Shown here in pieces: positions 32,148-32,923 of a stretch of DNA of 51,013 nt. The stretch lies in the IMG/VR virus record IMGVR_UViG_2548876959_000011. One strand, written 5' to 3'. Under the pieces are notes generated by a model. The model was not told the DNA's origin, ran no database searches, and saw nothing but the letters and a program-made list of their open reading frames with translations. The position numbers were made by a program, and so were the translations under genes. Position 1 is the first letter of the stretch, and each line of letters starts with the position of its first letter. This DNA comes from a virus (lineage: Duplodnaviria; Heunggongvirae; Uroviricota; Caudoviricetes).

Positions 32148-32573
32148 ATGCTCGGCATTCTCAAAAAGAAATTCCGCAAAGCGGCTGGCGGAGTCAAGAA
32201 GATGGAAAACCGTGATGCGGTGGAAGCGACTGTCTGGGGCGCATATTCCATTGCATACTCTGACGGCACCTGCGATGCGAAAGAAATTGCAGTGTTGGAA
32301 AAAACCATTGCAGCACTTCCTGCCTTTGCGCCGTTCTCCGGTGAAATTGCCCAGATGAGCGCCAATATTCGCGCTCAATATGAAGCCTCGCCGCGCCGAG
32401 CGAATGCCCAGGCTTTACGTGAACTGGCTGACGTGTCTGGAACTAATGATGCGGTAGATGTTCTGTGCCTATGCATTGATATTGCTGACCAGGATGGCAT
32501 TGGGGCAGAAGAGCAGGAGCAATTGAAGAAAATTGCCCAGGCTCTTCAATTGCCACTGGAACAGTATATCTGA
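32148..32573 (+). CDS. tciA: TerB-like protein (P1 TciA-like)
   Basis: 141-aa ORF; TerB-like pattern by eye; position between tRNA genes. Confidence 0.55.
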   Translation: MLGILKKKFRKAAGGVKKMENRDAVEATVWGAYSIAYSDGTCDAKEIAVLEKTIAALPAFAPFSGEIAQMSANIRAQYEASPRRANAQALRELADVSGTNDAVDVLCLCIDIADQDGIGAEEQEQLKKIAQALQLPLEQYI

Positions 32574-32737
32574 TGGTTATAAAAGCACGTCTAATTCTGG
32601 CTTTGGTTTTTCTCGTGCTATCTGTGCTGGTGGATTTCACCAGCACAATCCTGTCGGTTTTATCCGACGGGGCGTTGGTAGCAGTAGCTGTAACATTGGT
32701 ATGGCCGATATTAAAAACAGCTTCTAAGGATCAGTGA
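32573..32737 (+). CDS. small membrane protein (54 aa)
   Basis: Hand-translated MVIKARLILALVFLVLSVLVDF...; start overlaps tciA stop (TGATG). Confidence 0.4.
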   Translation: MVIKARLILALVFLVLSVLVDFTSTILSVLSDGALVAVAVTLVWPILKTASKDQ

Positions 32738-32844
32738 TGGGCTTCTGGGATTTTGCTGACAAGCATCCAATTGTTCTCGTTGTCATTGCTGGCATAGTTG
32801 TAGGCGGTATTGCTGGCGTCATAGAAGCACTCAGGAAACAGTAA
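32737..32844 (+). CDS. small membrane protein (35 aa)
   Basis: Hand-translated MGFWDFADKHPIVLVVIAGIVVGGIAGVIEALRKQ; start overlaps previous stop (TGATG); ends 3 nt before tRNA-Ile. Confidence 0.4.
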   Translation: MGFWDFADKHPIVLVVIAGIVVGGIAGVIEALRKQ

Positions 32845-32847
32845 TCC

Positions 32848-32923
32848 GGCCCTTTAGCTCAGTGGTTAGAGCTGGCGACTCATAATCGCACGGTCACCGG
32901 TTCAAGTCCGGTAGGGGCCACCA
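32848..32923 (+). tRNA. tRNA-Ile2 (CAT anticodon, lysidine-type) or tRNA-Met
   Basis: 76 nt; acceptor GGCCCTT/AGGGGCC, anticodon loop CTCATAA; closely resembles E. coli ileX as recalled. Confidence 0.85.

Follow-up and report, generated by a model that had tools for sequence, protein, structure and literature searches.

The ter clusters of bacteria, of which TerB is a component, are credited in the literature as quoted with tellurite resistance, colicin resistance and phage inhibition, and membrane association has been reported for TerB (Alekhina 2011, as cited in 10.1101/2022.05.11.491447). A TerB domain is also present in the anti-phage systems Shango and Bunzi, for which a role in membrane surveillance was proposed (Millman et al. 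2022, preprint). In bacteriophage P1, the genes tciA, tciB and tciC have been annotated since 2004 (GenBank AF234172 / NC_005856; Lobocka et al. 2004) and form a variable region of P1-like plasmids (PMC9603915). They are non-essential for lytic growth of P1, since plating was unchanged when they were knocked down by CRISPRi (PMC10695390). Our literature search found no published phenotype for tciABC in terms of tellurite resistance, colicin resistance or phage inhibition.

The DNA analysed here, a stretch of 51,013 nucleotides (hereafter the window), belongs to a P1-like phage, with DNA identities of 99.8% to JL22 and 99.6% to P1. The region under study is the tciA-tciB-tciC accessory cassette of this P1-like phage-plasmid: the products of its three open reading frames (ORFs) are each 100% identical at the amino acid level to TciA, TciB and TciC of P1, and the order tciA, tciB, tciC, trnI, ban is the one annotated in P1 and JL22, with synteny kept (the P1 features were taken from the GenBank records). 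The cassette sits within the presumed C1-repressed ban transcription unit, with a structured STnc100-like element to the left and trnI to the right. The tciABC genes themselves are already known; an earlier description made from the letters alone, here called the sequence-only reading, re-describes annotated P1 genes and, given the age of that annotation, matters little as it stands. What is new is the tight juxtaposition of a TerB-like gene and a DUF3927 gene in lambdoid, N4-like, Pseudomonas and Erwinia jumbo phages, the frequent occurrence of this pair next to tRNA genes or immediately 5' of a holin gene, and the filling of the P1 slot by one of three alternative membrane-related cassettes.

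The three ORFs lie on the plus strand and start with ATG: tciA (32148–32573, 141 aa) encodes a soluble TerB-fold protein, tciB (32573–32737, 54 aa) a hydrophobic DUF3927 peptide, and tciC (32737–32844, 35 aa) a peptide with a single hydrophobic segment. The coordinates bear out the stop-start overlaps of the sequence-only reading, with TGATG at both the tciA/tciB and the tciB/tciC junctions and one base common to stop and start. The hydrophobic character that it gave to both small peptides also holds (GRAVY 1.49 for TciB and 1.03 for TciC; highest 19-residue Kyte-Doolittle windows 2.6 and 2.7, respectively). Shine-Dalgarno sequences are found at tciA (GAGG, 8–11 nt 5' of the start) and tciC (AAGGA). 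Each of the three products has a PHROG family match (E=7e-62 for TciA, 3e-22 for TciB and 3e-27 for TciC), and natural alleles, in which no frameshifts occur, differ with dN/dS near 0.3 in tciB and near 0.6 in tciC. The Pfam and PHROG matches, the dN/dS values and an ORF kept at the same position in D6 show that these are not chance ORFs. Translational coupling of the three ORFs, as suggested by the overlaps, would lead to their products being made together.

TciA is a soluble, full-length TerB-fold protein and a genuine TerB homologue, as the sequence-only reading had supposed. It matches Pfam TerB (PF05099) at 28.4 bits (cut-off 24.4, E=2.1e-6) and PHROG 632, annotated as 'tellurite resistance', at the E-value given above; moreover, a profile of 96 TciA-family members matches the solved TerB structure 2JXU at E=1.3e-26, aligning residues 9–143 with 14–149. 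The AF2 model of TciA (pLDDT 91.5) is all-helical with six helices, and its best Foldseek match is the TerB-like protein 2h5n (probability 1.0, TM 0.50–0.56); 2JXU was absent from the Foldseek matches to this model. G40, E46, G117 and E122 are nearly invariant in the 96 family sequences, and TciA has, in common with its family, two acidic Asp-Gly ... Glu motifs. Its N-terminal part is basic, and a conserved MFGxxFxKK segment lies at the N terminus. No transmembrane segment was found in 94 of the 98 family representatives. The longer family members that were inspected for fused transmembrane anchors, the TciA-TciB fusion P0003 among them, seem to stem from frameshifts or wrongly called starts, and were not used as evidence. 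A single-sequence search of the PDB gave weak matches to centrin and troponin C (E>=0.14), but an EF-hand identity was rejected: in view of the clear match of the family profile to TerB, these hits were put down to noise caused by the acidic Asp-Gly ... Glu loops.

The homology and the gene names both raise the question of tellurite or colicin resistance acquired by lysogenic conversion. The TerB relationship of TciA is genuine, and ter clusters, in the literature as quoted, give both resistances together with phage inhibition; however, genes for TerC, TerD, TerE and TerZ are absent beside tciA, and the paper on phage PMBT3 argues that terB on its own is without the further genes that activity requires (PMC8421299). 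In lysogens, C1 represses the sole annotated promoter, and virulent phages possess the same pair of genes. This function is, by our estimate, highly improbable.

TciB matches Pfam DUF3927 (PF13064) along the entire profile (positions 1–53 of 53) with 106.4 bits against a threshold of 25 (E=7e-31), and its residues D21 and D32 are nearly invariant. The AF2 model of TciB, built with close homologues, consists of one uninterrupted helix, which does not discriminate between a hairpin and a single span; a word-based homologue search with TciB returned close relatives only. TciC, which belongs to PHROG 23152, is limited to the P1/P7/D6 lineage: Upf69.6 of P7 is, like P1 TciC, 100% identical to TciC of the window, a second tciC allele is 74% identical with changes that preserve the transmembrane segment, and D6 has an ORF of 36/37 aa at the tciC position with 31% identity. 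The peptides are therefore conserved in relatives (TciB across phage groups, TciC within its lineage) and the TerB similarity is present, so the sequence-only reading is contradicted on neither count. Peptides of 35–54 aa that are very hydrophobic could also act as small toxins, with TciB and TciC depolarising the membrane in the manner of type I toxins or holins and TciA restraining them. Coupling, by which TciB would be made only when TciA is translated, fits such an arrangement, as does the ability of TciB to have a different upstream partner in phage 434. Nevertheless, no sign of toxicity has come to light, the pair is stably maintained across hundreds of plasmids and prophages, and neither an antisense RNA nor any other type I hallmark is present, which makes a toxin with its regulator highly improbable.

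The sequence-only reading placed the cassette between tRNA genes. Same-strand tRNA genes do lie on both sides, but those on the left, tRNA-Asn (GTT; 31067–31142, Rfam tRNA 74.5 bits) and tRNA-Thr (TGT; 31145–31220, 72.9 bits), both called by ARAGORN on the plus strand, are about 930 bp upstream and not adjacent. On the right, the last base of the TAA stop of tciC is at 32844, and trnI (32848–32923, plus strand; ARAGORN, Rfam and P1 annotation) starts after a gap of 3 nt, forming the right boundary of the cassette. ARAGORN calls trnI tRNA-Met on the basis of its CAT anticodon. Its assignment as tRNA-Ile was nonetheless confirmed, since the identical gene is tRNA-Ile in RefSeq, shares 89.5% identity with tRNA-Ile genes of the E. 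coli chromosome, and is recorded as an ileX-like tRNA-Ile2 in the P1 GenBank record. The body of trnI is thus ileX/ileY-like rather than that of a tRNA-Met, and trnI (CAU) is a candidate lysidine-modified tRNA-Ile2; it has the pairs C4-G69 and C5-G68, which we take to be TilS determinants.

Between tRNA-Thr and the cassette lies a repeat-rich spacer (31221–31986) with four families of direct repeats, where the minus-strand ORFs plp and upl are annotated in P1. P1 has lost 196 bp and P7 215 bp of the spacer, deletions whose sizes fit the repeat spacings, and P7 and D6 harbor an intact tRNA-Ser here. The repeats show weak similarity to tRNA (best Rfam tRNA-type match 14.6 bits, E ~10) and are possibly decayed tRNA units. 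The spacer is followed by a structured STnc100-like RNA element (31993–32117, plus strand; Rfam RF02076), which forms the conserved left boundary of the exchangeable cassette. Its match of 39.2 bits is under the gathering score of 47 (E=8e-7). The element has a minimum free energy z-score of -4.2, compensatory changes are seen in its outer stem and hairpin, and partial RF02076 matches also occur upstream of the cassette in P7, D6 and RCS47.

The presumed start of the transcription unit, the C1/Bof-controlled ban operon, is a 46-bp segment (30368–30413, plus strand) that exactly matches P1 (AF234172) and contains the P2ban/P1ban promoters and the bivalent C1 operator Oban (Op72); its promoter function is taken from GenBank annotation. 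At the other end, ban (33210–34574), encoding a DnaB-type replicative helicase and matching the annotated ban of P1 and JL22, is followed by dbn (34574–35572), also annotated in P1 and JL22, through an ATGA overlap, both on the plus strand. A terminator scan found no terminator-like site on the plus strand from the tRNAs to ban. The same scan detected a terminator-like GC hairpin followed by T8 (30571–30603, plus strand) at the end of the 'dicF-like region' of P1, in which DicF has no Rfam match. Since this hairpin lies between the promoter and the tRNAs, read-through must be assumed for transcripts to reach tciABC. The hairpin could stop most Pban transcripts short of the cassette. A promoter scan of 30200–33300 returned no sites and missed the annotated Pban as well, and is therefore uninformative on an internal tciA promoter. 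Co-transcription of tciABC with the tRNAs and ban, as the sequence-only reading proposed, is plausible, with the C1-controlled Pban as the promoter. The tciABC products would then be made only after derepression, in lytic development, on one precursor RNA with the tRNAs and ban, and an RNase P cut at the 5' end of trnI would leave a tciABC message with 3 nt past its stop codon.

The slot contains the P1-type tciA in 195 plasmids, a P7-type terB in 119 and an SPFH cassette in 195; for comparison, ban was counted in 436 plasmids. The TciA proteins of P1 and P7 share only 31% identity, yet their neighboring TciB and TciC are nearly the same, which argues against a highly specific interface, unless that interface consists of a few conserved motifs. 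The SPFH cassette encodes a periplasm-facing lipoprotein, so the slot implies no single common mechanism. We conclude that tciABC is an exchangeable accessory function rather than a core one. Dispensability in the laboratory (PMC10695390) and frequent replacement by other cassettes would also suit hitch-hiking DNA that has no current function and whose small ORFs are not expressed as proteins. However, the TciA/TciB pair is conserved at 25% to 100% identity across distant phages with its length, motifs and juxtaposition preserved, dN/dS is below 1, and tciA and tciC have good Shine-Dalgarno sequences; the probability of DNA without function is accordingly very small.

The pairing of TciA and TciB is conserved across unrelated phage groups. 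The locus searches, run with single proteins and a narrower TciB alignment as queries and gathering roughly 100 loci, showed that in 55 of 56 lambdoid-type loci a DUF3927 ORF starts -4 to +9 nt from the stop of the TciA-family gene, and that such an ORF follows the TciA-family gene in 13 of 17 diverse loci. The same pairing is found in the N4-like phages Pollock and SP-058 and in the Nickievirus phiK7B1, and when the search was made from the TciB side, a TerB-like ORF lay directly upstream in 16 of 19 loci of bacterial species. Exceptions include TciA-family genes without the partner (e.g. in PMBT3 and at loci L102 and L108) and TciB without TciA in phage 434. In Vibrio phage PhiImVa-1 and at locus L109, the gene adjoining the TerB-like gene encodes a TerC-type membrane protein in place of DUF3927.

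The position of the pair differs among phage groups, and this bears on a possible part in lysis timing or host takeover, in which the peptides would affect cell division (to which the 'i' in tci refers) or the triggering of the holin, and TciA would be their cytoplasmic regulator. Lambdoid phages carry the pair in the late operon, after the antiterminator gene Q and before the lysis genes; at some loci a Phage_holin_8 holin gene follows immediately. The small hydrophobic peptides also have conserved intramembrane Asp residues. By contrast, the N4-like phages carry the pair among early/replication genes, the P1 cassette is placed in the early ban unit under C1 control, a long way from the lysis genes, and the knock-down left plating unchanged (PMC10695390). 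We therefore consider a function in lysis timing unlikely.

The neighborhood of tRNA genes is also recurrent. Same-strand tRNA genes adjoin the pair in lambdoid phages (about 36 of 56 loci), P1-like phages, Nickievirus and locus L104, and in Erwinia jumbo phages the TerB-like/DUF3927 pair lies inside a tRNA cluster. In JLK-2012, tRNA-Asn, tRNA-Thr and tRNA-Gly precede tciA-tciB, an order parallel to that of P1. The sequence-only reading took the locus for a membrane stress/immunity module with coordinated counter-defence, combining tRNA supply and envelope protection. In such a unit, the tRNAs would make up for host tRNAs lost to anticodon nucleases, and protection of the envelope would fall to TciABC. 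The association of such pairs with same-strand tRNAs in several unrelated backbones, together with the tRNA-Asn, tRNA-Thr, tciA-tciB order shared by P1 and JLK-2012, speaks for a link. On the other hand, many TciA-family members in phage contigs have no tRNA within 8 kb, and accessory genes of all kinds insert into tRNA clusters and into the region from Q to the lysis genes. The tRNA adjacency can equally reflect a common hot spot. A simpler account of the tRNAs, with no need for defence, is codon supply: in the long ORFs of the window, 19% of Ile codons are AUA and 24% of Thr codons are ACA. The PADLOC defence models gave no family at E<=1 for TciA, TciB or TciC, and no phenotype supports the idea. 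Neither part of the proposal has direct support, P1 can dispense with the genes in lytic growth, and we judge a counter-defence unit very unlikely.

The likeliest role, to which we give about even chances, is that of a small inner-membrane complex made during lytic growth. TciB (with TciC in P1) would form this complex and either anchor TciA or be regulated by it; a physical interaction of TciA, TciB and TciC is one that we infer from gene order and coupling only. Most speculatively, this complex may influence inner-membrane state while the phage develops, for example through ion or proton-motive-force homeostasis or by keeping out colicins or the DNA of superinfecting phages; such activities would echo the colicin-resistance and phage-inhibition phenotypes of ter clusters. 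A broader reading, which we offer tentatively and regard as unlikely, is that the TerB-like/DUF3927 pair is a widespread phage membrane module in phage-host or phage-phage conflict that possibly keeps the inner membrane of the infected cell energised when superinfecting phages, colicins or depolarising abortive-infection systems threaten it. If so, there would be a functional reason for its repeated occurrence within tRNA islands and next to lysis genes, and the three alternating cassettes (two 31%-identical TerB classes and an SPFH lipoprotein) would be a signature of diversifying selection. A TerB-fold protein with a DUF3927 peptide is among the more widely shared accessory modules of enterobacterial temperate phages and is also present in virulent N4-like, Pseudomonas and Erwinia jumbo phages. 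P1, which is genetically tractable and has natural alternative cassettes in its slot, is convenient for studying stand-alone TerB proteins, and learning their role would also help with two long-unexplained phenotypes of ter clusters, phage inhibition and colicin resistance.

Compared with TerB of the terZABCDE(F) clusters (IncHI2 R478; Klebsiella, PDB 2JXU), TciA has the same full-length domain, all-helical fold and acidic motifs and is of similar size (141 versus 153 aa). However, the tciA locus lacks TerZ, TerC, TerD and TerE and has the tRNAs, tciB, tciC and ban as neighbors; the partner of TciA is a DUF3927 peptide of about 50 aa, whereas that of ter-cluster TerB is the polytopic TerC. The proposed TciA-TciB complex would be analogous to the TerB-TerC pairing of ter operons. 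Moreover, TciA is phage-borne and probably expressed in the lytic programme, unlike its ter-cluster counterpart. Shango and Bunzi share the TerB domain with TciA, but are bacterial, multi-domain systems with helicase or ATPase components. In the E. coli thrU-tyrU-glyT-thrT-tufB operon, a protein-coding ORF and tRNAs are carried on one precursor. The P1-like locus resembles it in that ORFs and tRNAs would share a precursor whose mRNA ends are set by tRNA-processing nucleases, and differs in that the tciABC ORFs lie between tRNAs and merely 3 nt before the downstream one.

The tciABC locus of P1 is the same as that of the window in its proteins, gene order, overlaps, tRNA spacing and upstream Oban/Pban segment; a repeat unit of 196 bp, missing from P1, separates tRNA-Thr from tciA further in the window, JL22 and RCS47, and no functional difference from P1 exists within the cassette itself. 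The lambdoid/Stx slot between Q and the lysis genes, which holds the ileZ-argN-argO tRNAs, stx, nanS-p and the STnc100/Pas sRNAs, also holds TciA and TciB homologues (41–87% and 44–59% identity, respectively) and, like P1, combines same-strand tRNA arrays with STnc100. This slot is served by a late promoter with Q antitermination, whereas the P1 cassette has a presumed C1-controlled early promoter; it lacks TciC, and its STnc100 lies downstream of tciB, in contrast to the position upstream of tciA in the window.

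Three ORFs on the plus strand, tciA (141 aa, 32148-32573), tciB (54 aa, 32573-32737) and tciC (35 aa, 32737-32844), meet at two TGATG junctions in which stop and start share one base, and the tRNA gene trnI starts 3 nt past the tciC stop. TciB (GRAVY 1.49) and TciC (GRAVY 1.03) are both strongly hydrophobic; the best 19-residue Kyte-Doolittle windows of the two peptides reach 2.6-2.7, and the same scan found no comparable hydrophobic segment in TciA. This arrangement, first described in a sequence-only reading, was confirmed. Region 30900-33300 aligns along its whole length with phage JL22 at 99.8% identity, and its identity to P1 is 99.6%. 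GenBank records of both list the same genes in the order tciA, tciB, tciC, trnI, ban, dbn. P1 TciA, TciB and TciC are 100% identical to the proteins of the window, so genes that were already known are described here once more. A literature search found no paper testing a tciABC phenotype.

TciA is a soluble, true TerB, as the following comparisons indicate. Its Pfam TerB score (28.4 bits) passes the cut-off of 24.4, and a profile of 96 TciA-family clusters matches the solved Klebsiella TerB 2JXU across the whole protein (E=1.3e-26), which bears out the TerB similarity proposed from sequence alone. The AlphaFold2 model is confident (pLDDT 91.5) and contains six helices, with the TerB-like protein 2h5n as its top Foldseek match; a hydrophobic segment is absent in 94 of 98 family representatives. 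Clustered at 50% identity, the family returned by an exhaustive search comprises ~140 groups, almost without exception stand-alone proteins of 140-150 aa; two Asp-Gly ... Glu motifs (G40/E46 and G117/E122) are nearly invariant in a set of 96 family sequences. True tellurite resistance conferred by tciABC is possible but less likely: no other ter genes were found around tciA, and the PMBT3 paper argues that terB alone is missing the further genes needed for activity (PMC8421299).

Besides this soluble protein with the TerB fold, the overlapping ORFs specify a membrane peptide of the DUF3927 type and, in P1, one further peptide; the TerB-fold/DUF3927 pair recurs as a conserved unit in phages unrelated to one another. 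The Pfam family DUF3927 covers TciB end to end (E=7e-31). Among 56 lambdoid-type IMG/VR loci with TciA at 84-88% identity, a TciB homologue (44-59% identical) begins -4 to +9 nt from the TciA stop in 55. The pair is also present in 13 of 17 distant loci, in the N4-like Pollock and SP-058, in Pseudomonas Nickievirus phiK7B1 and, in diverged form, in Erwinia jumbo phages; a search from the TciB side found a TerB-like ORF directly upstream in 16 of 19 bacterial-species loci. TciC is restricted to the P1/P7/D6 lineage, where it is kept: its two alleles share 74% identity, differ by Val/Ile/Ala/Gly-type changes and give a dN/dS of ~0.6, and the D6 ORF in its position has equal length and 31% identity. 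Both peptides are thus conserved in relatives. TciB retains nearly invariant D21 and D32 within its hydrophobic stretch, together with a Trp-Pro motif, and its AlphaFold2 model is a single helix. A peptide toxin accompanied by a regulator is a possible but less likely reading. The dN/dS of tciB is ~0.3. When P1 genes were screened genome-wide by CRISPRi, tciA, tciB, tciC, trnI and ban were all classed as dispensable for plating (PMC10695390); a tciABC devoid of function is likewise conceivable, though the less probable reading.

The 66% identity between TciA of the lambdoid phage JLK-2012 (3001-3432 of its locus) and a TerB-like protein of the Erwinia phage Huxley (1497-1922) points to putative exchange of a TciA-type gene between very different phage types, namely an E. 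coli lambdoid phage and an Erwinia jumbo myovirus. In Vibrio phage PhiImVa-1 (1-1926 of its locus; gene order TerB-TerC-TerB) and in one other collected locus, L109, a TerC-family membrane protein adjoins the TerB-like gene in place of the DUF3927 peptide. One 196-aa database protein from a single contig, P0003, carries TciA and TciB as one chain fused at the TGATG overlap; this most likely reflects a frameshift or sequencing error and not a natural fusion.

The P1ban and P2ban promoters and the bivalent C1 operator of P1 are matched exactly at 30368-30413. Across 30200-33300 the plus strand has a single terminator-like site, a strong GC hairpin followed by T8 (30571-30603). It lies upstream of the tRNAs, ~190 nt past the ban promoter and at the end of the P1 'dicF-like region', in which Rfam DicF found no match. 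This hairpin could give rise to a short RNA and act as an attenuator of the operon. Given read-through, the conserved promoters and the position of the only terminator-like site make co-transcription of the tRNAs, tciABC, trnI and the DnaB-type helicase gene ban (start 33210, by ORF call and P1 annotation) plausible.

The trnI anticodon is CAT, for which ARAGORN calls Met; the assignment as tRNA-Ile holds, since an identical gene is tRNA-Ile in RefSeq and identity to chromosomal E. coli tRNA-Ile genes is 89.5%. The P1 record names it an ileX-like tRNA-Ile2. Genes for tRNA-Asn and tRNA-Thr lie ~930 bp upstream of tciA on the same strand. In the long ORFs of the window, AUA accounts for 19% of Ile codons and ACA for 24% of Thr codons, and tciB and tciC hold two AUA codons each (4 in 89 codons, 32573-32844); the tRNA-Ile whose gene lies 3 nt downstream decodes this rare codon. 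Same-strand tRNAs (for example ileZ-argN-argO, Thr-Gly or a downstream Arg) occur within ~1.5 kb in ~36 of the 56 lambdoid-type loci. JLK-2012 has the order Q, tRNA-Asn, tRNA-Thr, tRNA-Gly, tciA, tciB, STnc100, nanS-p, holin, with a tRNA-Thr alignable to that of the window, and in the Erwinia jumbo phages the pair lies inside the tRNA cluster; other TciA-family lineages lack tRNA genes within 8 kb. This recurrent adjacency can be explained by a common accessory-gene hot spot or by whole-block transfer. The proposal of a coordinated counter-defence with the tRNAs found no support: PADLOC defence models gave zero matches for TciA, TciB and TciC, and the tRNAs fit codon supply. A defence-linked unit of tciABC and tRNAs is possible but less likely, as is control of lysis timing, even with a Phage_holin_8 gene following tciB in some lambdoid-type loci.

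The preferred reading is that TciA, TciB and TciC would be translationally coupled and may assemble as a small inner-membrane complex, an idea that fits the TerC neighbours in two distant relatives and the membrane association reported for TerB (Alekhina 2011, as cited in 10.1101/2022.05.11.491447). Expression would fall in lytic development, from a C1-repressed promoter in P1 and a late operon in lambdoid phages. More speculatively, the complex might act on membrane energy state or permeability, as suggested by the colicin resistance and phage inhibition that ter clusters confer.

The left boundary of the cassette is a structured plus-strand element (31993-32117) identified by an Rfam STnc100 match below the gathering score (39 bits versus a threshold of 47, E ~1e-6) and by its fold (MFE z = -4.2, plus compensatory changes); in P7, D6 and RCS47 it likewise precedes the cassette. 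A full STnc100 (107 bits) is directly downstream of tciB in JLK-2012, and according to a 2026 preprint STnc100 is linked to PasD sRNAs and TerB genes occur close to PasA and PasC. The stretch from tRNA-Thr to tciA (31221-31986) is a spacer of diverged direct repeats of four families, spaced 196-280 bp apart, that weakly resemble tRNA 3' ends and inter-tRNA spacers. In P1 exactly one unit of 196 bp is missing and in P7 one of 215 bp; an intact long-arm tRNA-Ser(UGA) occupies the spacer position in P7 and D6. The minus-strand P1 ORFs plp and upl, within this repeat DNA, look doubtful as genes. MicroRNA-precursor Rfam matches here are spurious, caused by a 23-nt inverted repeat (31641-31663/31718-31740; 91% complementary, 54 nt apart). 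Between trnI and ban, non-coding 32938-33106 is 81% identical to unannotated intergenic DNA of the Stx-type phage TL-2011b.

P1-like plasmids carry one of three cassettes between the STnc100-like element, their common left edge, and trnI: the P1-type tciA cassette (195 PLSDB plasmids), a P7-type terB cassette (119; 31% identical to P1 TciA, with TciB and TciC nearly unchanged) or an SPFH cassette (195), compared with 436 plasmids for ban. The last, at 2750-3794 of the RCS47 locus, encodes a 78-aa hydrophobic membrane protein with probably two transmembrane segments and a 275-aa SPFH/Band-7 protein with a lipoprotein signal, whose Asp at +2 after the Cys suggests possible inner-membrane retention. 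In a published survey of P1-like phage-plasmids, tciABC is one of eight regions described as highly variable, with no assigned role, and phages with the SPFH cassette count as having 'lost' it (PMC9603915); with three alternatives in one slot, this loss is largely replacement. Beyond what is known of P1, the additions are modest: how widely TerB and DUF3927 genes are paired, which neighbours recur beside the pair, and the alternation of three cassettes at the P1 slot.
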